Shown: positions 45,552 to 64,000 of the stretch, piece after piece | Layout of the letters: every line of letters begins with the position of its first letter | Numbering within the stretch: position 1 is the stretch's first letter | Assembly (NCBI GenBank): GCA_030295235.1 | Contig: AP026136.1 | Coordinates: forward strand, 124,001-188,000 | Origin: Fistulifera solaris | Lineage: Eukaryota | Length of the DNA: 64,000 nt | Direction: 5' to 3' | Made by a program: the position numbers and the translations under genes | Notes under the pieces: model-generated | Seen by the model: only the letters and a program-made list of their open reading frames with translations | Told to the model about the DNA's origin: nothing | Database searches by the model: none

Positions 45552-48500
45552 ATGAGAATATACGTGTTATCTTCAACGACGTGGCTCTGCCTCGTCTCTT
45601 GGCTACTTCCTTCGGTCGCCTTTCATGTCGCTCCTTCGAACAACATTGCCATTCGAAGAATTAGTAGAAGCCCGAAATCAGTCGTTACGACAAGTACAGC
45701 TGTGTCGATGGGCATGTTTGAAGATTTCGTGTCGGGTCAAGACAAGAATGCTCGTCAGCAAGAAAATGCGGCGTATTTGCAGCAATTGCAAACACGCGTC
45801 GAACGGATCAATGCCTTGGAATCTTCTGTGGAAGAATTAGGAGATGACGAATTGATTGCCAAGACGCAAGAATTCAAACAACGCTTATCGCAGGGGGGAA
45901 GATATCAACGGAAAAATATTGGAAGAAGCCTTTGCAGTTGTCCGAGAAGCGTCATGGTGAGTTGGGTCGTTTACGATGCGCGATGGTTCCTTTTCCCTTT
46001 CTCATTCATGTGTTTCTTAGGCGCGTCTTGGAACTACGTCATTACGATGTGCAACTGTTGGGTGGTTTGATCTTGCACGATGGTCGTTTGGCGGAAATGG
46101 CCACGGGTGAAGGAAAAACCTTGGTTTCTACGTTACCCGCTTACGTCAATGCCTTGACGGGGCAATCCTCCTTTGTGATTACCGTCAATGACTATTTGGC
46201 GCGACGTGATATGGAAAAAATGGGACAAATTCATCGTTTTTTGGGATTGACGGTCGGGTTGGTCCAAGCCAACATGAACGAACAACAGCGGAAACAGGCG
46301 TACGCGTGTGATGTTGTGTACGTCACCAACAGTGAATTGGGATTTGATTATTTGCGCGATCATTTGGCGCTGTCGCCGGAACAGACGGTCCTACCGGGAG
46401 GTGCCGGCGAATTTAGTGGTTTTTGTGTTGTGGATGAAGCAGATTCGGTCTTGATTGATGAAGCACGGACACCGTTAATTGTCAGCAAACAAGTGGCGGC
46501 GCCGGCGAACAAGTATGCGGCCGCGAATGCTATTGCGGGAGCTTTGAAGGCTGGTCTGCATTATACAGTGGATCTCAAAAACAAGAATTGTGTCCTCACC
46601 GAAGTAGGTTTCAAAGAGTCCGAAGCGGCGCTGGGTGTAGATTCACTTTTTACCATTCAAGCCGATGGGTCAGCTTGGGCTCCTTATATCACTAATGCGG
46701 TCAAAGCGAAGGAGTTATTTAACAAAGACGTCGAATACACTATTTTAAAGGATGGCAATGGAAAGGATATTGGCGTTGGCATTATTGACTCTTTACTGGT
46801 CGCGTTTTGGATGGACGTCGTTGGTCGGATGGGTTACATCAGAGCATCGAAGCTAAAGAAGGTATCGAAGTCAGCCAACAAAGTAAAGTCATTGCAAAAG
46901 TCACCTATCAAGCGTTGTTCCGACAATTTTCGCGTTTGTCTGGCATGACGGGCACCGCCATGTCGGACGCGAAGGAATTCGAGCAAACGTACGGTTTGAA
47001 AGTAGTCCCCGTTCCTACCGCTTTGCCAATCGCACGTCGCGACTATCCGGATGTTAGTTTCAAAACCCGTGCGGCTGCCAATCGAGCATTGGTAAAGGAA
47101 GTTGTGAACGTTGGTGGTGGTCAACCTGGTGGACGCCCCTGTTTGATTGGAACGACATCCGTGGCTCAGAGTGAAGAACTGATTAAAGCTTTGGCAGAGG
47201 AAGGAATCGCAGCTGAGTTGCTGAACGCCTCACCCCAGAATGCTCCACGTGAATCCGAAATTATTGCTCAAGCGGGACGTGCGGGAGTCGTCACGGTGGC
47301 CACGAACATGGCAGGTCGAGGTACAGACATCTTGTTGGGTGGTTGTCCCACAACCATGGCTCGTATTAAGACGAGATCGGTGCTTCTAGAAGAAGGTGTA
47401 GTTGTCTCGAAAGATGAATTGGCGCTTGTACCACCATCTCCGGACGAGGATTACTACCCTGCAGATGTAGATGAAGATTCTATCACAACGCTTAAAGACG
47501 CCGCCAAGGCAATGAAGAGAGCATTCGCCGACGGAGTCAGTGCAATTGAATTGGATGACATTTTGACCGTGGCGTTTGACACGACAGAAGCTGATGACGA
47601 ACCTGAGTATGTGACACTACTCAGAGAAGCAGCCGATTCCATTAAAGAAACGTTCAAAGAAGTGCTGGCAGAAGAAAAAGCAGCTGTCAAAGCAAAAGGT
47701 GGTCTTTACGTTATGGGTACGAATCGTCACGAAAGTTCTCGTATCGATCTTCAGCTTCGAGGACGTGCTGGGCGTCAAGGAGACCCTGGATCATCTCGTT
47801 TCTTTTATCCTTCGAAGATGACATGTTTGTCATCTTCGGTGGAGACAAATTGAAAAACATGTTGAATATGTTTCGTGTGAGTGAAGATATGCCCGTAGAA
47901 GCCGAACAAGTAACTGAAGCTTTGAATAAAGTCCAGAACGCCGTTGAGGAAAAGTATCGAGAGATCCGAGCTGAGATTTTTAACTTTGATGATGTCCTCA
48001 ATAGTCAACGTTCCGTCATCTACAAGCGCCGCAGAGACATTTTATTTTCCTCGTCAGACGAATCACTTCGAATAATTAAGGATTACAACATGCAGACAGT
48101 ATCAGATATCGTCAAGGGGCAAACGGACAAGGATGGAACTGTCAACGTCCCCAAGCTGTTGCAAAAGGTGTATCAATTTTTCCCTCTGGTGCAACCGTTT
48201 GTTTCAGAAGCTGATCTCGTTGGCAAAGACAAGAGCACAATTGAGACATTTGTGAAGGTGGCTGTTGAAGAAGTGTTTAACTCTAAACTGGAAACACAAC
48301 CAAATCTTGTTCGATCCGCCAATTATGCTACGCTTGTAACCATGGACAATGCATGGAGCGATCATTTACAAGCAATGGAAAACTTGAAGGAAAGTGTGAT
48401 TCTTCTCAAATATCAAAACCGTGACCCTGTTTCCGAGTACAAAAACCAATCATTCAACCTCTTCAAGAATTTGGAAGATACAATGCGTCGGAATGCAGTT

Positions 48501-48691: not shown

Positions 48692-51564
48692 TCAACTTGG
48701 TTGGTCATTTCTATCGTCGTCGGCGGCGGCGGCGGCGGCTGTGTTCCCTTCTCTGTCGCGGGGCTTCGCTTCCAAAGTAGATTCAATGAAGTGGTCATCG
48801 TAACGCAACTCAGCAGAAGCAAAAGAGTTTTCATAGACACGTATTTCAATTGATGTTTCGTCTGCCGAGATAAGTCGCTTGAAGGAGCTTTGAATAAGTG
48901 GGTCATTGGTGGAAACGCAATCAATCGCGTCTTTCCGGTGTAAAGCTCCTTGGGTAGAATCGTCGATACGAAGCAAGGATGACTGCCTTCGTCGTCGGAG
49001 TCCCTCAGTTTTCTCCGAGTTGTTGTGGAGGTAGATGTAAGGTGTAGATCCCAGACCACCATCTACTATTTCAAATCCCATAGACTCTGGTACTTCCCTC
49101 TCGTCTAAAGGAATCGCCTTTTTTCTTAAGGCTTTCACGACATCTGAGCTTTCATTCTCCTTTATTTCGCGAACACAGTATTGCGCCGCCATTCTTAGTT
49201 TTTCCAACTCTAACCACGCTTTTTTAAACATTCCTTGCTGAACCTCTGTTCGCGGTAGAATTTTCCCGAAAAATTGCTGTCCGGGTATAGATTGATTATT
49301 GCATGGAATTTCAGGCAATATCGTAGTAACCTCGGCGTGGGAGCACGGAAGGGGTCTATCGTGGTGCCGACTAATGTTGAACGAAGGTACTTGAGTAATA
49401 TAGGTCCCGAAGGCCAAACATTTGGCATCTTTCAGCTTCAGGGCATCTTGGCGACGATGTCGGGCTGACTTCGACTCGTTGCGCAGCTTCTCAATGGCTT
49501 TAGAGATCCTATCATCGTGAGACAGGCTGCCAAAGCACGAGTCGACCAACATCATGTGCGGACCGAGTAAACTGTAGACAATTGTCCGCGTGCCCTAAGT
49601 CAAAATAATTTCCCAAGGCAAAAGTAGGCTCACAATCCCGGCAACCAAACATCCCGCAGTTATCCAAAAGGAAATGACCCCCTCTTCCCATGTGACAAGT
49701 ATTTTGACGACGCGCATGTAGCGACAGTACTTTGCTATGATACCTTGATATCGGAACAGTCGCTCTAACAGGTCTAAAGGTATGCTGATGTTGGCCTGTT
49801 TGGTGTGAATAGTCTCGTCGCCAATCGCATTCAGCTGCTGTTGTAGCTCTGCCAGAGTCGCAATATGTTTCTGGTCACGCTCGAGGCGGTCTTTCCACGC
49901 CTTTTCATGAGCATCTATCCTCTCCACTTGATGGAAGGGTTCGATACGCTCAAACTGAATCGAAGTCTCGCCTCCCAGCAATATTTGTAAATAGTTTCGA
50001 AACGATGGGCATCCAAACCACGGCGACGGGTGTTGTCGCCTTTGTATCAGTGTAATTAACATGATCCACCCAACACCCAAGAAGCAAAATGCCGGAAATA
50101 AAGAAGGTCGCTCCAATAATTTGCAGCAGGATAAGAAGAAGACGAGAGAGTGCAATGGAAGGACCATGTCAAATACTTGTACCTGTCCTCGCCAAAAGAT
50201 CAGCGATTGGATACTGTCAACGATGCAGTATCCCAACGTGTTCTTGTATTCCAGGATTTCGTTAATGTAAGATCGCATAATCGTGATATCGAACCCTTGT
50301 TCCGTGTGATCCCCAAATTCTCCGTGACAGGTGTAGTGTAGAACTTTGAAGCTCTTCTCTTTTCCACATTGACATGAAATTTCGGACGTGATCGGATTCC
50401 TGCCAGCAACGCTTCTCGCTCATTGAAATACTCCAAACGAATTCGTACCGTAATTTGACCAGCCGATATACGATCGGTGACATGCAAATTGGGATACAGT
50501 TTATAGGTGAGGGTGTAATCTGTGTGACGTTGTAGATTGCTGAGATTGACGACCACCCGTCCCAATGGATCATGAGCACCGAGACAATCAAAGTCAAACG
50601 CCCCCAGATACAACAAACTGGATGGATGCATAATTTTGATGCAAAATGCTCTCTGGGTCCATGGCATCCAGTGAGGACTGAGTTCATCGTCAATGACCGG
50701 TGTTTGCACCATGGCGTCTTCAAACACAGCGCAAACAAAACAGTCGGTAAAATTTCCGATACTCCCACCGATATCTACGTTCGGAAGATCGGAACATTTC
50801 AGTATTTCTAGATAGAGATGTCCAATGGAACCCGATCCGGCGGTAACCCATTGCTGGGAAGGAGCAAATATGGTTTCCTTGATAGCTTCTTTGGACATGT
50901 ACGTCGTCTCTTCGACTCGTTGAGGATCGGAGTGCGGTTTGACGTAAATACTGAAATCATCCTGGACTATAGTCTGCAGAATGCTAGATACGGAACGTCC
51001 CAAGTTCCTCCATTGGCTGGCTTCGGTGACCAATGTGGCGGTAGGTACGGCTTCTCTCCAAGGATTTTCGTTTCGATATAGTTTCGTCAAAAATTCAATA
51101 TCACAGTCGGTAGCCAATCGAAATCGCATCGTTAAAATCACATTCTCTGTAACCCTGATATCCATATGCTCCTCTTGCGAGACTAAAATGGTATCCCCGT
51201 TCACTAGCGTATGTCCTACCGAACCCGTATCCCACGTGGTAAGATTCAATGGATCTTTCTGTTTGTACCGAACCGTGACTTCCAAAGGATCCAAAGCCAA
51301 TTCGCGCGGCGTCGCATCCCACCAAAAGAGTGACTTTTTCGACAATGACCATATTCCTCCCTCTTCGGCCGAACCTGTCTGATGTCGAAAGGTTCGTCCA
51401 AACGCGATTTGGCAAAAATACTGGTGATTTGGGTCAACGCCCGAAATTCCCACGACTTCTCCTAAAAGACGAATGGGCTCATCTTTTGCCAGCAATTCTA
51501 TTTGCCGTTCAACGTCGTGAGCTTTCCGTGTTTCGTCACATGACAGGGTAGTAGAAGCCTCCAT
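48692..51564 (-). CDS. C2-domain membrane protein (MCTP-like architecture), interrupted by one indel and one in-frame TAG
   Basis: C2 motifs LYLEILKCSDLP, VQTPVIDDELSPHW and FDFD...HDPLGRV, followed by hydrophobic segments. Indel near 50360; in-frame TAG at 49595-49597. Confidence 0.75.
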
Positions 51565-52249
51565 CTTTCCTACATTTTGTTACAATATGTTGACGATGTT
51601 TGTTGGTGGTTCTTTCGCCGATGGCGGACGCAGAAATGGAGCTTTGGTGCGAGTGTCACAGCCGGACCGTTGAAAGTCCAATGGCATTATTGGATTTCCG
51701 TTGGATCGATTGTTGACAAAATTACTTCCGCAGATCTAAAAACGGCACATTAATTGAAATTTTGTGTTCAGAAGAACTCTGTCTATTTACTCGTAAGGCT
51801 TGGCCAGCGTGCTTAGTGTTTTTGCTATACAAAACGTCAAGGCTACGAAACGATAGCGATATCGTATCAGGTATCGGTGTCACCTTTAAAGTGGACGAAC
51901 AAGACGTCGCACGTAGAACACGGTCGAACGTCGAAACCTAAGTTTTTGTGATTGGAACGATTGACCTCGCCCGAGCACGATGCTGGCACCAAGATCGCAA
52001 GTACCGGTACCTTTTATCCTATACAAAGCTCGCCATTACTGCCTCGTCGATTCCGAACCTCTCACGTCGTTTCCCTCGATCGTAGACTAACTGGAACAAA
52101 CAGTACAAGGAGGGAATCCTGCACAGCCGAAATAAATCTGCATCAAATATTGGGGTCGAAGCAGCGGATTATAATTCAATGAAAAGTCTTTGTCAACTAC
52201 ATCGTTATCTTTGCTTCTCTTGTTTTTTATCCTCTATAATACTACAGGA

Positions 52250-54213
52250 ATGACTTGTCAAGGATTCATTGTTCTTTGGGCCGCAGCAGCGATCTCAATG
52301 GCCTCCGCCAGTCTCGCTGTACCCAGCTTTCCTTTGGCTACGCTCCACGAGGATATCTCCTCCATTACGCAAGCGCTCCGTGAGAACGGTTTACTGGCAA
52401 TTGAAATGCCTTCGGAGTATGCTGCCACAAGGAACTACGCTTTAAGTGGCGTTTGTTCGTGCTGGAATTCTCTTTCGGAAGCTCGTAGTGTCCTCGGTGG
52501 TAATAGTATGAGCGGTCTCTTGCAACAAGGGGCGAGAACTACGGTAGCCACCGCCACAGTGGGCTCGACTCCGCTGCCATTGCCGACCGAAATCTCTCAA
52601 ATTTGTGGAGCAGATATGGCGGACGCACTGGATGTTTTGCGCGATCAAGTAGCTACAGCTTCTCAAGCGTTCATCTCCGCTTGGGATCAATCGATTCCCT
52701 TGTCTCGCACTCCGCTGCTCCGTACCAAACACGGAGTCGAGTATCATCGTATCCACGATATTGTCAAGGCCTCTACCAACTTGGAACACTTTCATTTGTA
52801 CTCCAAAACTATTGGTGACGAAGACGATCATGATTTGAACGTGCACACGGATGCGGGTCTCTTTTTGAGTTTCGTCCCCGCCTTGGATTGCACGAACGGT
52901 GGAGATTCGTCTTTTTGGGTGGAAGACCGTCACGGCACGCTGCAACCCGTCGAGTTTGCCGACAATGCGGTGATCATCATGATGGGTGCCGGCGCCGAAC
53001 ACTGGTTGCAGTCGCCTTCCCAAGTCCGCGCCACACGACATGCCGTTCGCATGCCCTTGGGGACGGTGCGCGCTTGGTACGGGATGAGTACGTAATACGA
53101 AATGGAGTGATTTCCAAAAGGCTTGTACAAATCATTGTCTTATATCATTGCCCTTCTTTTCATTCTTCTGCAGTGCACTTGGTTCCCACGACGGCCATTG
53201 TTCAAGAATTCCCTGAACCACGTACGTTGGCGGATTTGCAACAAGCTTTAGTCCACAAACGCTCCGATACGACATTGCAAATGCGTTATCAAGATGACGT
53301 GATATCGCTGGGTTGTGGCAATGTTCCCGTCCAAGAATCCATGGTCAGCAACGACGAACCGACGTCTCCGCGTCGCCGTTTGGCCATGGTCGACAATGCC
53401 AGTGTCTGTAACAACGTCACGAATTTCTACTGCTGGATGTCATGTTTGGACATTCCAGAAGTGGATCAAGCCCAACAGCACCTAGAAAAAGGGCATGGTC
53501 TCTATTGCGTCGACCCATCGGTAATGCATTCCACCAACAACGATGTGGCGCAAGCGGTAGAACCTTGTATAGGTGAAGATGGTCTATTTGGTAGTGCCAT
53601 GAATGAAGCCTGTGTCGGTAGTTGGCAACCCAAGGTAGATTATTTGGCTGCAGTCCCTATCAGTGTCGACGAAAACCCATTGTCACAAGAAGAAGCACCA
53701 TACTGTTACGGAGGGTCAGTCATGTTTCACGACGGATTCCAATGGAAGAGTACGACGTGTGCTATCTTGTTGTTTCCTCAATGGGTTCTCAGTACGCAAG
53801 GCCAATTCATTGCCGGCTGTTTCGGAACGGTGCTGCTAGGTGTGTTGGTAGAATTCATCTTGTTTCAACGCCGCAAAGTAATGAAACGCATTGATCAATC
53901 GTCGCGTGCCATGCGCTTGACCATATCAGCGATCATTTATGGCTTCCAACTGACCATCGGTTACATGGTTATGTTGGTGGTGATGATCTATTCGGCCCCT
54001 TTGTTTATGGCCGTGATTGGAGGGCTGGCGCTGGGTCATGTTCTGTTTAACGCGAAAGACGCTGTCTTTGCCACGTCTGCGCGAACGACTGCTACAAAAG
54101 CACAAGATACTCTCAGTGAAGATGGCACCGATAAGGCATCGCAATCGCGCTGTTGTAGTGAAGACACCGACCATGCGGAGGGTATTACACCATGCTGTCA
54201 ACACACCTTGTAA
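52250..54213 (+). CDS. Fusion of signal peptide, 2OG-Fe(II) dioxygenase-like domain, Cys-rich domain and Ctr copper transporter
   Basis: Intron 53088-53173 joins the two ORFs in frame (RAWYGM|MHLVP). HTD...H...R motifs, then three hydrophobic segments with MLVVM (MxxxM) and GLALG (GxxxG), and a CC/His-rich tail. Confidence 0.85.
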
Positions 54214-54326
54214 AGCGAAACGGGATAAAACGGTTAAAAGTAAAAACATGTATAAAACGAACTTTCAATAATCTGATGTAAAGGAAAAGTCTATTTACGA
54301 GTACCTTCCCACGGATAGGCAACATG

Positions 54327-54616
54327 TGCAATGCTCGGCTCGATTGTTTAATGTCGAAATGGCGTGCGAATCGTTCTGTCCCCATTTTACTATAGGACCA
54401 ATGTGTGGTTCGTTGTTCGAATCATGAATGTTTTAAGTCAATATGATACCAAATTACCGTTCATTTCCCAAACTTGATAGAAAAAAATTATTGTTTTTGC
54501 TAATCAATAATCTTCGACAGCGATTGCAATGCTCGCCTCGACTCTTTATGGCGAAATGGCTTGCGGATCAAATTGCCACTATTCTACTATAGGCCCAACG
54601 TGTTGGTCCTTTTTCG
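54327..54616. repeat. Two diverged direct repeats of about 90 bp, 198 bp apart
   Basis: Copies start at 54327 and 54525 and share tgcaatgctc, ctcga, cgaaatggc and tactatagg. Confidence 0.85.
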
Positions 54617-55223: not shown

Positions 55224-57080
55224 ATGAAAAAGGACACCTGGAGGATCGTCACCTTTCTCGTGCTGATTGGGAGCAATATTTCAAATGGTTTCCTCTCTCC
55301 TTTCCGATCGAATAAAAATTTGGCACTTCGATCGCAGCAACAAGAATTGCAAGATATTGTTCAGCAGGTTGCGGTTCTAGAGGAATCCTTAAAGGAGGAT
55401 GACACAGCGAATCTGATGGAAATGGAAGAGCAAATCTCGTTACTCGAACAACAAATGCAATTATTAGAACAAATACCGATTTATTTAACAATTAACGAGT
55501 TCCAAGAAGCCTGTTGGACGATTCTTAACTTACCCGTTGAAGTGCGGGTAGCTCTGTGGTATGCCGTGGAGGAAAATAGCGACGATCTTTGGGAAACTGC
55601 CACTAATGTTCAGCAAATACCAACGCTCATCACTGGTTTGTACGAACAACAAAATCAAGCAGGATTTGTCAACCGATTACGGGAAGGTCTCACTTTCGCA
55701 CGGAAAGGCAATACGACAAAGAAAACTTTTAAGCCTACTACAACACCTACTACAATGAAGAAGACACGGCCGCCATTTTCTTTATTCAAGAACAACAGCG
55801 ATACCGAGAACAAGATCGAATTAACACCGGAGGAACAACGTACGGAAAGTATGATTCAACAACTCTTACCACGGGTCACGCGACAAACCGACGTTACATC
55901 ACAGGATTTGGCGGTCGTCATGGAAATTTTGCGTCGCAAAGAAATATTCCTTCCTACATCGACTCCGCCTCGTCGAATACCGGGAGGGTATTGTATTTCG
56001 GGAACATGGAAACCGAATCAAAGCGTCACACAACAATTGGAACGATTGGAGGAACAATTTCCGAAATCCTTCGATGCCCAGCTGTGTTGGTTGCCTGATT
56101 CGTTTTCGGACACGGACGATGATGAACCATTCGGTGTCACGAAAGATCCTGTTCTGTTGTTGACCAAACGTGATTTCACGCCCTCCACCAGGCCTTTGGT
56201 CAACGGACTCACATCCTTGTCGGCGTTTTGTACTTGCATTGTCTTTATTGTCGGCATATACGGTGGCAATGAATTGGTCACGACACGTCTGACACAACCC
56301 GATTTTAGTGGCATTGATTGGTTCAATGGCAAAATTTTGGATTTGTTGGGTCCACTTGCGCTGGTTTCCGGAATGCACTTGTTGTCACAAGCCATGGTGG
56401 CACAATTGGAACAAGTGAAATTGTCGTTTCCGGTAGTCTTGCCATTTTGGCCTTTGCCGTGGATGGGTACCCTCCGTCGTTGTACGAATTCTCCTTCCTC
56501 ACGAACGGCCTTGGCGAATGTCGCCTTGGCCGGTCCCGTTGCCGGATTGATGACATCGGCGGCATTGTTGTGGTTTGGTCTCCAATTGACCGCCTTGGCA
56601 CCTTCCGAACTCTCCGACTACTTTCCAACGTTACCCGTCCGTGTCTTGCAATTAAGTACAGCCGGGGGTTCCTTGATTGATTCTGTATTGGGTGGTGCTG
56701 CGGGATTTTATACAACACAAGAGTCATCCACGGCCATTCCATTGCATCCTTTGGCGGTAGCGGGTTACGTATCCTTGTTGATCCAAGCGGTGGATTTGTT
56801 GCCATTGGGGGCCACCAACGGTGGTCGATTGTCACTGGCGCTGTTGGGCCGACAAGGGCATTCGGTGATTGGTGGTCTCACGTGGCTGATCCTATTGCTG
56901 GCCTCTCTTTCCGATGCCCAAACGGATGTCTTGGTAGGCACTTGGATCGTCAATAATGTGGTCCAGAATGATCCCGAAGTTCCTTGTCGGAACGAAGTTG
57001 ATCCAGTGGGAATCCCACAAGCGGCTGCCGCATTGTTCTTATGGTTCGTCACGGCATTGATCTTGACGCCATTGCTCTAA
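55224..57080 (+). CDS. EGY/S2P (peptidase M50)-like plastid membrane protein lacking the catalytic motifs
   Basis: Leader SNG-FLS; motifs ALAGPVAG, LHPLAVAG, LLPLGATNGGR and PCRNEV. The HExxH position reads HLLSQ. Confidence 0.8.
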   Translation: MKKDTWRIVTFLVLIGSNISNGFLSPFRSNKNLALRSQQQELQDIVQQVAVLEESLKEDDTANLMEMEEQISLLEQQMQLLEQIPIYLTINEFQEACWTILNLPVEVRVALWYAVEENSDDLWETATNVQQIPTLITGLYEQQNQAGFVNRLREGLTFARKGNTTKKTFKPTTTPTTMKKTRPPFSLFKNNSDTENKIELTPEEQRTESMIQQLLPRVTRQTDVTSQDLAVVMEILRRKEIFLPTSTPPRRIPGGYCISGTWKPNQSVTQQLERLEEQFPKSFDAQLCWLPDSFSDTDDDEPFGVTKDPVLLLTKRDFTPSTRPLVNGLTSLSAFCTCIVFIVGIYGGNELVTTRLTQPDFSGIDWFNGKILDLLGPLALVSGMHLLSQAMVAQLEQVKLSFPVVLPFWPLPWMGTLRRCTNSPSSRTALANVALAGPVAGLMTSAALLWFGLQLTALAPSELSDYFPTLPVRVLQLSTAGGSLIDSVLGGAAGFYTTQESSTAIPLHPLAVAGYVSLLIQAVDLLPLGATNGGRLSLALLGRQGHSVIGGLTWLILLLASLSDAQTDVLVGTWIVNNVVQNDPEVPCRNEVDPVGIPQAAAALFLWFVTALILTPLL

Positions 57081-58866: not shown

Positions 58867-60472
58867 TTACGCCTGATCCTTACCATCCTCATCACTCGCC
58901 GTCGTGTTTTTATCATACCCATATTCTCGTCCTTTTGTTTTCTTGAGTTCTTCTTCATCGATTCCTTGATAGGCTTTTCCCGCATTGTACCCATGAAAGA
59001 CTTTGGCGGTAATTTCGACCATGGCATCTTCCGGTACCATTTCCGGCGGAATTTCGACCCGATTAACAATTTGAATGCCCGTCGAAACAATCGCATTGTA
59101 TTTCATGTCACTCATACTGATGAAATTATGAATTTTGGTGACGCCCAAGAAATGCAAAGGATCCGGCATGAGCGCTTGGAAGCGTGTATCTTGCACTCCG
59201 GCCACTTGTTCCGTACAACGAAAGTACCGGTCGGCACTGTCGCCCCCTTCTTGTCGTTTGCGTGTGTTGTACACCAAATACTTGGTGACTTCTCCCAACG
59301 ATCGTCCTTCTTTGCGATAATAAATGACAATCCCACAACCACCCCGTTGCGCCGTTTTGATGCATTCTTCAATGGCGTGTGTCAAATAGGGCCGACAGGT
59401 ACAAATATCACTCCCAAAGACATCGGAACCGTTGCATTCATCGTGGACCCGACACGTCAATTCAATGTCTTCATCGGGGATGGTCGCCGGATCGCCCCAA
59501 ATGTAAATCGTTAAACCACCGATGGGTGGTAAAAAGATTTTAATATCGGGACGCGTAATGAGTTCGGGGTACATGCCATTGGTCATGCGGAAAATGGAAT
59601 GTCGCAAATGTGTTTCGGTGGTTTGGAAGCGACGGGCAATTTCGGGTAAATACCAGACGGGTTCAATGGCGGCTTTCGCGACGACCGACTGTCCCGAGGG
59701 CAACAAGATCTTACCGTCGGGAATCAATCGTCCCGACGCGACACCTTCGCGACATTCGGGCAAATCAATGTGTGCTTTCGTGACGGCAATCGTCGGACGA
59801 ATATCCCACCCTTTCTCCAACCAATCTCCGTAGCATTGCGTCACAATATGCCCAAAGGGATCAATGGAACCTATTTTCTTGGGATCACTCCACGCCGGAT
59901 GAGGACCAATGGGAAAGACGGGACTTGTGAGTGACAAATCGGGGACGTAATTGGGATCGAGTTTGTTGGCCGCGACCGCCAAGCCGGTATAAATACAATA
60001 AGATCCTTGATGCGCCCCAATCGCGTTGCGTTGCGACGAATGTGTGACGGTACAAATGACGGGACCGCGGACACGAGGATCGGGATGTCCCCAACTGATG
60101 GGAACCGGATCAACACCAAACGCATCGGGATGCGACGTCAATTGAATGTGATCGGAATCGTGAAAGTCGGGAATGGGAATACCGTCTTGTTCTGTAGTAC
60201 GAATGAGGATGAGTTCAGTAAGAGAGAGAATGAATGAATGCAAGAAATGAATGAATGAATGAATGCAAGAATGAGAGCGCAAGACAAGAGGGAGATATCC
60301 AACATCTCTCTCTCTCTCTCTGTGTGTGTGTAAACGCACCATGATGCTCGGTACGAGCTTTTTTGCTCACACGGGGCGTCAATCCTCCCATATTCTCTTC
60401 CGTGTTATTGTTGAGATTGTCGGTTTCCCGTGTCGTCGTCGTCGTCGTCGTCGTTGCTATTTCGGGTTTCAT
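58867..60472 (-). CDS. URC1: URC1/Urg1-type GTP cyclohydrolase II homologue with N-terminal extension domain
   Basis: Motifs RGPVICT, RNAIGAHQGSY, DIRPTIAVTKAH, FLPPIGG, RVHDECNGSDVFGSDICTC and RKEGRSLGEVTKYLVYN. Intron 60192-60339. Confidence 0.88.
60229..60330. repeat. Intronic microsatellites (GAAT)n and (TC)n(TG)n
   Basis: aatgaatgaatg, atgaatgaatgaatgaatg and tctctctctctctctctgtgtgtgtg inside the URC1 intron. Confidence 0.9.
60433..60453. repeat. (GTC)n microsatellite encoding poly-Thr
   Basis: tcgtcgtcgtcgtcgtcgtcg in URC1 exon 1. Confidence 0.9.
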
Positions 60473-61361: not shown

Positions 61362-61418
61362 CTACTTGTTAGTGCTGCCGTTGCTGCTAGTATCTGGCGA
61401 TGAGGACTCGACCGATGG

Positions 61419-61454
<36 letters not shown>

Positions 61455-64000
61455 TGGTTGCTTCTCACCCATGGAAAGACTCAACAAAATACGGTCCATG
61501 TCAGCATCTCGACCTTCTTCCACAAATTGCACTAACTTGTGTTCATCAATCCATTGGATCAATTCTTGCACGGTAAATATGCCATCTGAGTTCTCGTCCA
61601 TATTCTTGGCCAACTGCCGGGCTTCTTCCAAAGAAATCTTGCGTTTCAAAACTTGTTGGAGGACTTCGGCCAGTTCGTCTTGTGATAAAATTCCGTCCTT
61701 GTCCTTGTCTAAATAATGAAGTTTGTCGCCGATTTTCACTTCCGTTTCCGACAACTGCACTTCAATCTTGTCAACCATGGACTCGATGCGCTTTTTCAAA
61801 CGACGAATAACCACATCGTCTTCCGATTCCTCTGTCTCAGATGTTGTTGGCTCTTCCGTTGGACCCGTCGTCGTGACAGTGGTCGACTCGGCACTTTCCT
61901 TTGCGGCACGGTCTTCGCTTTCGCGGATGGATGATTCTACTAACTGGTCCGCTTCGTCGGACGACATGGGACCCCGTGGTGTGGCTTCTGGTACCGGTGC
62001 GGGTACTTTTTCTTCAGCAAGTTTGCCCGATTCTTTCTCCGGTGTTGTTTCGGGTTCGGGTTTCTCCTTTTGCATAGCGGCTTTAATTTTCTCTAACTGA
62101 GCACGCTCCATACTCACGGGATCTTCGGAAAGTAACTGGGAAATGGCATCCATTTCGGCAGAAGTCAGTGAATGCTCCGCTTTGGTCTCGGATATTTCCT
62201 CCGTACTTTCATTTGGAGAAGGCACTGCTTTCATTGACTCTGGCGCAGCAACGACCACTGGTTCTGCCTTGGTAGGCGTCGCTGTTGCAGACACAGGTTC
62301 TTCTATGGCAGCCTTCTCTGCCTCGGCTTCCGTCGCTGCTCCCGCCTCGGTTTTAACTTTTTGTTTCTTGGCTGCCTCGCGGGCCGCTTCTTCTTCACGA
62401 ATCAACTCATTCTGCTTCGACAAAACTTCTAATTTAATCTTTCGTACGTCGGGATTCGACATTTTTTCTTCGGATGTCGCCACATTCAAAATAACTTCGT
62501 TCAGTACTTCCTTGTCCAGACCCGAAATGGTATCCGCCAATCCCGCTAAAGATTCACGGGGTTTCTCTTCATCTGGTTTACGCTCAAAAGCTTCTTCTTG
62601 CAGGAAGAAGGTGCGACTCATGATGAGCAAGGAAATAGGGACATTCTTTTCAACACTCAACTCCAACCATTGAATCAACATGCGTTTGAACGCGTCCTTA
62701 CTCAAACCCGTCGAACGCATTCCTCGTTCCCGACAAGCTTCTCGTAATTCCATTTTAGTTAATGAATCAATGCCTTCCCACAAAATGCGTTGGTCGTCCT
62801 CTTTCAAAATACGAATTCGGTGTCTCAGTTGAAAACGCAAAAACGAGTCGGAACCGTAGGGAGGGATGCCCATGTATTTGCACATATTAATCAGTTGCAT
62901 CCGTGGCATATTGTCCAACGTCAGGTCGTCTTGAAAGTAAGTTGCATACTTGATAATCAACTCAGGCGGGATCGTTCGCCCGCTTCGAGCGCTTTCCAAG
63001 AATTCCAGCATGGATCGTGCGGAGTCTTCCTGTTCGTGCATTCCTACCTCGTCACCAGCTTCTTGTAGTTCTTTCGTTTTCTTTTTCGCTTTGCGTCGTT
63101 GTTCTTTGGCCAACTCCTCTAGTGTTCTTTTGAGTTTGGCGGAAAGCATGAATGAGAAACATCAATGATGATTTTAAAAAGGATGACTGGCAAACACAAA
63201 TGAAAACTTACTCATGGAAGAAACTTGCCATCGCAATGCGTGACTGTAATTCTCGTTTCATGTTTTCCTCATTCTTGAGCGAATCTTGAAAGGTACTAGG
63301 GAGCATGTTCGGGAAGAGACGCAGCACAAAGGGCAAGGCGAATTCACCCAACGGAATGATAATGAACATGCTGAATGGAACCATTCGAAACAAATCCGAT
63401 ACGGTTCGTAGCAATTGCTTCCGTTCACGACGCGTCAAGGAAGAACCTTGCAATGTCTTGACTACCAAACTGCGAGATGTTTGGATGTCAGCCCACAGCA
63501 ACTATACAATCCAAATTAAGCCATGAAGTAATGGTGAGGTTGTACAGTCATCATTCAGCAAAAAACCCAAATTTCACGTACCTTGAAACCAACCCAATAG
63601 TGATGTATTTCGTCCTTGACGGCCTGTTTCATGTCGGCATATTTCTTACGCGTCTCCGTCGGATGGGTCAAATAATAGTACAGATTCCCCGGCAACTGAA
63701 AAAGAACCGCAACAACGTCGTAAACGCCGAAATGATCCCATCGACACCTTTCCGTACAATACTCCGGGGACTGGCCTTTTGAGTGATTCCAATGGATTCA
63801 TCTCCGACTCGATTCCAGACGGTGGAGTCGGGATACGTGTCGGGTCGAGTTTGTGTTTGACCACCGGACGAGGTGCCGTCCGCGCGGCTACTGAAAGCGA
63901 AGGTGGGACCGATGACGACGATGAAGAGTCGGGAGTAGGAGTCGGAGATGTTGAAAATTGCGCCAATTGTTGCAACCAAGGGGATTGATTCGGAATGTTG
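61362..64000 (-). CDS. LETM1: LETM1 mitochondrial inner-membrane K+/Ca2+-H+ exchanger with EF-hands; 5' end lies outside the window
   Basis: Motifs HYWVGFK|LLWAD, LTRRERKQLLRT, DLFRMVPF, FPNMLPSTF, DDLTLDN and ELREACRERGM; EF-hands DKDKDGILSQDE and DENSDGIFTVQE; poly-Q tail from a (CAA)n tract at about 61418-61452. Introns 63502-63581 and 63127-63211. Indels near 63700 and 63778. Confidence 0.95.

Follow-up and report, generated by a model that had tools for sequence, protein, structure and literature searches.

The window analysed here, a stretch of 64,000 nucleotides of Fistulifera solaris (assembly GCA_030295235.1, contig AP026136.1, positions 124,001 to 188,000 of the forward strand), contains at its positions 52,250 to 54,213 a gene in which a domain with the predicted fold of 2-oxoglutarate (2OG)-Fe(II) oxygenases precedes a Ctr copper transporter. 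The encoded protein of 625 amino acids comprises, in this order, a probable signal peptide, an oxygenase-like domain of ~290 residues, a disordered linker, a Cys-rich module of ~100 residues and a complete Ctr unit. We hold this gene structure and the identities of the domains with high confidence. The reading of their function that we prefer, for which the chances appear about evenly balanced, is that the oxygenase-like domain acts outside the cytoplasm as a working metallo-redox module and makes copper ready for passage through the pore. Coordinates are those of the window throughout, and features are collected in the table below.

The region between 51900 and 54600 holds two open reading frames (ORFs), one running from an ATG at 52250 to a stop at 53095 and the other open from 53176 to its stop codon at 54211-54213. 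A sequence-only reading of this DNA had proposed that a single GT-AG intron joins the two in frame, and the proposal stands. The intron has canonical ends and differs in G+C content from the exons (36% vs 51%), and its removal yields a coding sequence of 1878 nucleotides that specifies 625 amino acids and a stop; when unspliced, the frame meets a stop three codons beyond the junction of exon 1 and exon 2. The translations of exon 1 (P0001, 279 amino acids) and of exon 2 (P0002, 345 amino acids, from 53176) were analysed separately. The closest full-length homologue, P0003 (641 amino acids), aligned with P0001 up to its residue 298 and with P0002 from its residue 300. The one residue of P0003 left between the two alignments corresponds to the split Met codon, and the junction is therefore bridged exactly. 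Furthermore, the consensus of 54 long homologues is continuous through the junction, and when homologues were collected with P0001 only, a precomputed PF04145 (Ctr) assignment was present in 50 of the 54 that measured 490-2000 amino acids, some of them from transcripts marked complete (MMETSP). The fusion is consequently established by homology of the protein sequences and not by cDNA. Translation also placed the HTD motif, the distal His, the Arg, the MLVVM and GLALG motifs and the CC..H..CC.H tail exactly where they had been noted. The signal peptide that had been noted with them is putative, the evidence for it being a hydrophobic segment and the similar N-termini of homologues. Plastid targeting was considered and rejected because a Ser follows the probable cleavage site; diatom plastid presequences carry an aromatic residue or Leu in that place.

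The C-terminal half of the protein is a true Ctr/SLC31 transporter by Pfam profile, by PDB sequence match and by modelled fold, transport itself being predicted. P0002 matched PF04145 at residues 242-291 with an E-value of 5.8e-18 and 66.3 bits (cut-off 25.3), as the sequence-only reading expected, and matched Ctr1 chain 6m97 among PDB sequences with an E-value of 3.3e-11. P0002 was modelled with AlphaFold2 using 55 homologues, and the result was compared with 48,161 representative chains in VIA-align. Ctr1 (6m97_A) was the top chain, with a Z score of 12.4, a root-mean-square deviation (rmsd) of 2.4 Å over 96 residues and 36% identity, and the second-best chain reached a Z score of 8.2. Three transmembrane (TM) helices were apparent in the model (residues 208-238, 244-271 and 274-310) and showed as hydropathy peaks. 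Residue numbers on this side of the junction are those of P0002, and conservation counts for the Ctr part and for the Cys-rich module refer to 56 aligned sequences, in 55-56 of which the MxxxM and GxxxG motifs are kept. MxxxM followed by GxxxG is given as the Ctr signature in the available part of a review of copper in marine microalgae (PMC9502191). With Ctr1 (6m97, and the yeast and human proteins) the window protein shares the three TM helices, both of these motifs, the Met motif that precedes TM1 and a cytosolic tail with Cys and His. At residue 185 of the pre-TM1 motif (53728-53730), the window protein alone has His, the other 55 of the 56 sequences having Met.

The N-terminal half was hardly visible to sequence profiles. 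P0001 matched no Pfam family at E<=1, and a Pfam scan of 55 family members found one that touches PF03171 (E 0.059). Against PDB sequences, P0001 gave nothing meaningful, the best entry being a chance match to a single-chain variable fragment (E 0.85), and family profiles gave marginal matches to DAOCS that involve the first ~35 residues only (E 0.02-0.6). A match of the family profiles to CDC23, confined to the RAWYG stretch, was discarded as chance. The AlphaFold2 model of P0001 (54 homologues) had a mean predicted local distance difference test score (pLDDT) of 88.1 and a predicted template modelling score of 0.86, and structural comparison placed it clearly. Foldseek returned 429 PDB matches at E<=0.001, the foremost being to pyrimidine nucleoside 2'-hydroxylase (PDN2'H, E 6.7e-12), DAOCS, the auxin dioxygenase DAO1 and the ethylene-forming enzyme (EFE). 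In VIA-align, entry 9hdl was the top match (Z 21.2, rmsd 2.9 Å, 241 residues aligned), 629 chains had Z>=8, and all of the best 50 of these 629 were 2OG/IPNS-type oxygenases, with DAO1, GA2ox3, TropC, thymine-7-hydroxylase, anthocyanidin synthase, IPNS, DAOCS and ACC oxidase at Z scores of 18-20.6. Neither clavaminate synthase nor the name of any prolyl or lysyl hydroxylase occurred among those best 50 entries. The clavaminate-synthase-like or 2OG-FeII Pfam match foreseen for the N-terminus by the sequence-only reading was not obtained at E<=1, although the oxygenase fold that it had predicted, and proposed to check through the double-stranded beta-helix, was recovered in the model. The failure of Pfam reflects the detection limit of the profile and is not a structural criterion.

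The likeness extends over the whole fold, including the DIOX_N-like half, when the model is superposed on 9hdl, DAO1 (6kwa), GA2ox3 (6ku3), DAOCS (1dcs), IPNS (1ips) and ACC oxidase (5gja), with Z scores of 18-21 over 216-245 residues and an identity of 11-19%. Language-model (ESM) features gave, as nearest neighbours, clusters of unnamed oomycete and haptophyte proteins of ~280-320 amino acids, and next to these, clusters with PF03171 and PF14226. On the evidence of the models, the N-terminal 280-310 residues have an IPNS/DAOCS/plant DOXC-type fold with a DIOX_N-type N-terminal half, and the domain represents a branch of the 2OG-oxygenase fold that is predicted to be extracytoplasmic and has diverged beyond the reach of current profiles.

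Conservation was followed in three alignments, comprising 55 close relatives (A1), 22 distant members (A2) and 61 sequences that mostly cover exon 1 only (A3). The residues H199, D201, H264, R274, Y184, H180, H182 and W276 (numbered from the first Met) were each kept in 55/55 sequences of A1. H180, H182, Y184 and the HxD pair were present in all 61 sequences of A3, the active-site residues overall in 59-61 of them with gaps accounting for the misses. Among the distant members, HxD, Y184 and H180 were kept in 22/22 and H182, H264, R274 and W276 in 21/22, the lone miss of H264 being a gap. The HxD...H...R signature recognised in the sequence-only reading is consequently found in its place and is conserved both in close (55/55) and in distant relatives (21-22/22). 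Chance does not account for these motifs, since a confident model, itself similar to 2OG oxygenases at Z 21, places them on the strands where they are expected. As in the IPNS/DAOCS/plant DOXC enzymes, an HxD...H triad is present and an Arg stands ten positions beyond its distal His. Y184 lies 15 residues before H199 and shares a strand with H180 and H182. The spacings of the triad and of the Arg and Tyr that bind the co-substrate appear to be those of anthocyanidin synthase. R274 and Y184 would occupy the positions that bind the co-substrate carboxylate in known enzymes, R274 at the place of the RxS motif of their last barrel strand. Metal binding alone would not require R274 and Y184 to be conserved.

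The domain also differs from these enzymes. It has a Trp in place of the Ser of RxS and an additional invariant HxH on the first barrel strand, it is predicted to be secreted and membrane-tethered, and it contains a conserved pair of Cys. In the distant alignment C71 is kept in 22/22 and C119 in 21/22 sequences, and the two would fit a disulfide in an extracytoplasmic domain. Downstream of the linker, the Cys-rich module keeps C78, C86, C90, C111 and C146 in 56/56 sequences and C131 in 54/56. For the fold of this module ESM gave no usable match, and Foldseek and VIA-align searches with the whole exon-2 model matched the Ctr helices only, the module never having been searched alone.

The gene belongs to a widely distributed family. 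A search of 1.84 billion proteins with exon 1 recovered 470 cluster representatives at E<=0.001. Named sources include the diatoms Seminavis, Cylindrotheca, Epithemia, Nitzschia and Ditylum, the dinoflagellates Gymnodinium smaydae and G. catenatum, and Telonema subtile; MMETSP and Trinity entries are among the members derived from transcripts. The fusion is not confined to this assembly but recurs in diatoms, dinoflagellates and Telonema, transcript-derived sequences included, and by these comparisons the joining of an oxygenase-like domain to Ctr is real and old. Local family hidden Markov models applied to 288 stored relatives detected the N-terminal domain in 287, and also the Cys-rich module in 93 and the Ctr part in 74; these fusion counts are lower bounds, because many of the other members are short gene calls on short contigs. 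A Pfam scan of 25 distant members found PF04145 in 7/25, and two of these have in addition a C-terminal HMA domain of the copper-chaperone type.

Variant architectures accompany the fusion. In the Gymnodinium proteins P0137 and P0154 a single chain comprises an outside oxygenase-like domain, a channel and a cytosolic chaperone-type copper site (HMA). The labyrinthulid Hondaea has the cassette without the Ctr part (P0189). In seven further proteins (P0151, P0155, P0176, P0188, P0268, P0269 and P0271), one of which is from Nitzschia, the cassette of oxygenase-like domain and Cys-rich module is followed by another conserved domain of ~200 amino acids and a hydrophobic tail, and Ctr is absent. A profile search of the PDB with this extra domain found nothing. 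Among nine of the Ctr-less paralogues scanned, one (P0188) matched DOMON (PF03351) with an E-value of 0.014, below the cut-off; a DOMON domain there, if real, would point to redox chemistry at the cell surface.

The domain has probably been met before under another description. In the accessible part of their preprint, Strenkert et al. (bioRxiv 10.1101/2023.10.19.563170; listed elsewhere as Metallomics 2024) report that CTRs of a 'protist cluster', for example in Albugo candida, have an unannotated N-terminal domain that is unrelated to CTRA, that a stand-alone Chlamydomonas form (Cre05.g236039) is a target of CRR1 in Cu deficiency, and that HMA occurs at the C-terminus within the same cluster. 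A role of the protist domain in copper acquisition is proposed there, and that part of the text contains no fold or enzyme assignment. The protist-cluster proteins, so far as they are described in it, and the present family have in common a domain N-terminal to Ctr, stand-alone secreted forms and a C-terminal HMA (here in the two Gymnodinium members), and the unannotated domain is probably the family studied here. The oomycete affiliation of the nearest ESM cluster fits such an identity with the Albugo-type domain; none of the 8 proteins scored in a homologue search based on A2 bore a green-algal or oomycete name. The sequence-only reading knew of no functional description of this architecture. 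This holds for the fold and the active site, which appear to be unreported in the searchable literature, but the domain itself, as an unannotated one, was probably already present in the 2023 preprint as far as its accessible text goes. The searchable literature yielded neither a fusion of a 2OG oxygenase with Ctr nor a paper in which the ectodomain of a Ctr protein is given an oxygenase fold, though further papers may describe the ectodomain.

Comparison with better known copper importers brings out what is particular to this protein. In the available part of the microalgal review, diatom CTRs are treated in classical terms, with short N-termini rich in Met and His (PMC9502191). Such is the N-terminus of Ctr1, whereas here ~460 extracytoplasmic residues would form two folded domains. 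The CTRA-CTR proteins of Chlamydomonas (CTR1/CTR2) likewise join a Ctr channel to a sizeable extracellular part that is rich in Cys and has a proposed role in collecting Cu. The protist N-terminal domain, in the accessible account, is unrelated to CTRA (bioRxiv 10.1101/2023.10.19.563170). CTRA has no oxygenase-like part. For the use of an enzyme-type metal site in copper import, fungal Bim1 is a parallel of unrelated fold. Bim1 is an LPMO (lytic polysaccharide monooxygenase)-like Cu-binding protein that works with Ctr1. In the preprint, again in its accessible part, this enzyme-like protein is described in fungal Cu acquisition, with BIM1 domains fused to CTRs at the C-terminus (bioRxiv 10.1101/2023.10.19.563170).

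How the parts might work together can be outlined from their order and from the model. Ctr proteins have an N-out topology. Given this topology, the putative signal peptide, the N-x-T sequon and the conserved Cys residues, the oxygenase-like and Cys-rich parts are expected outside the cell or in the lumen of an organelle, above the pore, and the ectodomain would thus face the medium or that lumen directly. A redox metal would be held by H199, D201 and H264, in a pocket to whose lining the invariant H180 and H182 also contribute, and a carboxylate co-substrate (2OG or an ascorbate-like compound) by R274 and Y184. Copper would be made transportable at this site, either through reduction of Cu(II) or through oxidative release from organic ligands. 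Cu(I) would then travel from the Cys-rich module to the C-x5-M-x-M/H motif, enter the trimeric pore by its MxxxM filter and finally reach the Cys pairs at the C-terminus. That the ectodomain serves copper acquisition in some manner is somewhat probable; that catalysis or redox turnover is truly involved, and not binding alone, is a tentative proposition for which the odds seem rather short of even.

A number of points weigh against a working metallo-redox module. Since the Pfam match is lacking and the PDB-profile matches are marginal, the assignment of the fold rests on predicted structure. The Ser position of RxS is an invariant Trp (W276), the Arg being kept. Oxic seawater contains little Fe(II) or 2OG, so that 2OG turnover of the classical kind is hard to reconcile with a place at the cell surface. 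Finally, no read or contig of this organism in spliced form was seen in the four sequencing runs (X1-X4) that contain the stretch, none of which is on record as RNA. X1 covers the whole stretch, including the intron and intergenic DNA, and is DNA-like; contigs of X2-X4 cover only 52203-52869 and 53215-54271. The cDNA across the intron that the sequence-only reading hoped for was accordingly not found, no contig among X1-X4 bridging the junction and 52870-53214 being uncovered in X2-X4. In favour of a copper-related module, the stand-alone Chlamydomonas counterpart, in which the same domain is probable, is a CRR1 target according to the accessible preprint text (bioRxiv 10.1101/2023.10.19.563170).

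The silence of these runs, and the presence of an in-frame ATG at 53281 within the second ORF, would also suit two separate genes whose fusion is an artefact of reading in an intron. The 35 codons upstream of that ATG are nevertheless open and conserved, the junction is spanned by precisely one residue of P0003, both parts occur together in 50/54 long homologues, complete transcripts among them, and the intron has canonical ends and a composition of its own, all of which makes two genes exceedingly improbable. More weight is due to the possibility that an old enzyme fold has become a non-catalytic copper receptor, in which the triad and the HxH would capture Cu(II) or Cu(I) for onward transfer to the Cys-rich module and pore, with neither a co-substrate nor turnover. 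The five invariant His and Asp residues are placed by the model on strands that face one pocket, the Cys-rich module always accompanies the domain, as Ctr often does and HMA does in dinoflagellates, and the scarcity of Fe(II) and 2OG outside cells would be of no consequence to a receptor. Fungal BIM1, including its fusions to CTRs, offers a precedent as described in the accessible part of the preprint (bioRxiv 10.1101/2023.10.19.563170). However, R274 and Y184 are as invariant as the metal ligands (55/55 and 21-22/22), and capture alone leaves the conservation of these co-substrate positions unexplained, so that a pure receptor seems to us unlikely, if well worth considering.

The intact catalytic and co-substrate residues could instead belong to a classical Fe(II)/2OG hydroxylase in the lumen of the secretory pathway or vacuole, or to a sensor of O2, Fe or 2OG, the hydroxylase having a substrate that has nothing to do with copper speciation and the link to Ctr providing only an anchor, co-regulation or gating of the channel. 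Lumenal 2OG oxygenases do exist, prolyl and lysyl hydroxylases being examples, and the cassette can occur without Ctr, as in Hondaea P0189 and in the seven proteins with another C-terminal domain. Yet the recurrent partners of the domain are ones that handle copper (Ctr in 74 of the 288 stored relatives, HMA in two), a Cys-rich module and a Met motif lie between domain and pore, and the fold is of the small-molecule IPNS/DAOCS/DOXC type, none of the best 50 structural entries bearing the name of a prolyl or lysyl hydroxylase. Such a lumenal hydroxylase or sensor is rather improbable.

Returning to the metallo-redox module, its most specific form would be an active oxygenase or reductase of the cell surface coupled to a Cu(I) channel, which destroys or reduces strong organic Cu ligands at the mouth of the pore, perhaps with copper and not iron in the 2-His-1-carboxylate site and the HxH. 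We regard this version as speculative and its truth as doubtful. If true, it would constitute an enzyme-coupled route of metal uptake in diatoms, dinoflagellates and other protists, and would address the question of how phytoplankton obtain copper that is bound almost wholly to strong organic ligands, for which the available part of the review describes surface reductases and Ctr channels only (PMC9502191). The analysis supplies a concrete protein and a set of residues for study (H199, D201, H264, R274, Y184, H180 and H182). It also provides a predicted fold for what is probably the domain that work on copper, in the accessible preprint text, lists as unannotated (bioRxiv 10.1101/2023.10.19.563170). 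The family would add an extracytoplasmic, membrane-tethered branch to the oxygenases of the IPNS/DAOCS type. To our knowledge, these have been soluble cytosolic enzymes.

Features of the fusion gene and of its surroundings in the window, with the basis of each assignment
Feature	Position	Strand	Basis
Exon 1	52250..53087	+	279 codons and first base of split Met codon; open frame; aligns with P0003 residues 7-298
Probable signal peptide (residues 1-20)	52250..52309	+	hydrophobic segment, residues 5-25; similar N-termini in homologues
2OG-Fe(II) oxygenase-like domain, main part (residues 22-279)	52313..53087	+	AlphaFold2 model, Foldseek, VIA-align
LEHFHxY strand (residues 178-184), HxH pair and Tyr	52781..52801	+	model strand 176-186
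HxD of putative metal triad (H199, D201; HTD)	52844..52852	+	just before strand 205-213
Distal His of putative triad (H264)	53039..53041	+	strand 263-266
R274-A-W276, in the position of RxS (co-substrate motif)	53069..53077	+	strand 273-278; R274 ten residues after H264
Intron, GT-AG, 86 nucleotides	53088..53173	+	GT 53088-53089, AG 53172-53173; direct reading
Exon 2, including stop codon	53174..54213	+	open frame; aligns with P0003 residues 300-641
C-terminal strand and helix of oxygenase-like domain	53176..53265	+	conserved; P0002 strand 8-10, helix 18-30, pLDDT 64-77
Poorly conserved linker, predicted disordered	53272..53382	+	pLDDT <50, P0002 residues 33-69
Cys-rich module, ~99 residues, with conserved N-x-T sequon	53383..53679	+	pLDDT 81-97
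C-x5-M-x-H/M-x-G-F motif just outside TM1	53704..53739	+	C177 and M183 kept 56/56; position 185 Met in 55/56
TM1 helix	53797..53889	+	model helix 208-238; hydropathy peak
TM2 helix with MxxxM (MLVVM 53971-53985)	53905..53988	+	model helix 244-271; M266 and M270 kept 56/56
TM3 helix and cytosolic extension, GxxxG (GLALG 54022-54036)	53995..54105	+	model helix 274-310; G283 55/56, G287 56/56
Cytosolic tail, CC..H..CC.H, terminal T-P-C-C	54106..54210	+	P339 54/56; C340 and C341 55/56
Possible poly(A) addition site	54271	+	58 nucleotides past the stop; single X4 contig ends with 23 non-templated A
SecA parts in two adjoining ORFs	45983-47853	+	DEAD-like and cross-linking domains, then P-loop domain
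C2-domain protein	50203-51564	-	neighbouring ORF
M50-type peptidase	55224-57077	+	neighbouring ORF
GTP cyclohydrolase II with its N-terminal domain	58870-60342	-	neighbouring ORF
LETM1-like protein with EF-hands	61365-63149	-	neighbouring ORF

Position 54271 is a possible poly(A) site, given a single contig and a run (X4) whose RNA nature is a guess; the genome has AATAA just before it. The neighbouring genes, encoding the C2-domain protein, the M50-type peptidase, GTP cyclohydrolase II, the LETM1-like protein and SecA, include none that is copper-related, and the two SecA ORFs probably belong to a single gene that either was read in two frames or is interrupted by a short intron. Downstream of the fusion gene, the intergenic DNA contains a direct repeat of 72 nucleotides (54348-54419 and 54545-54616) whose copies are 197 nucleotides apart and 75% identical; within the window the conserved core of the repeat is confined to these two places, the number of occurrences predicted from chance being 0.04.

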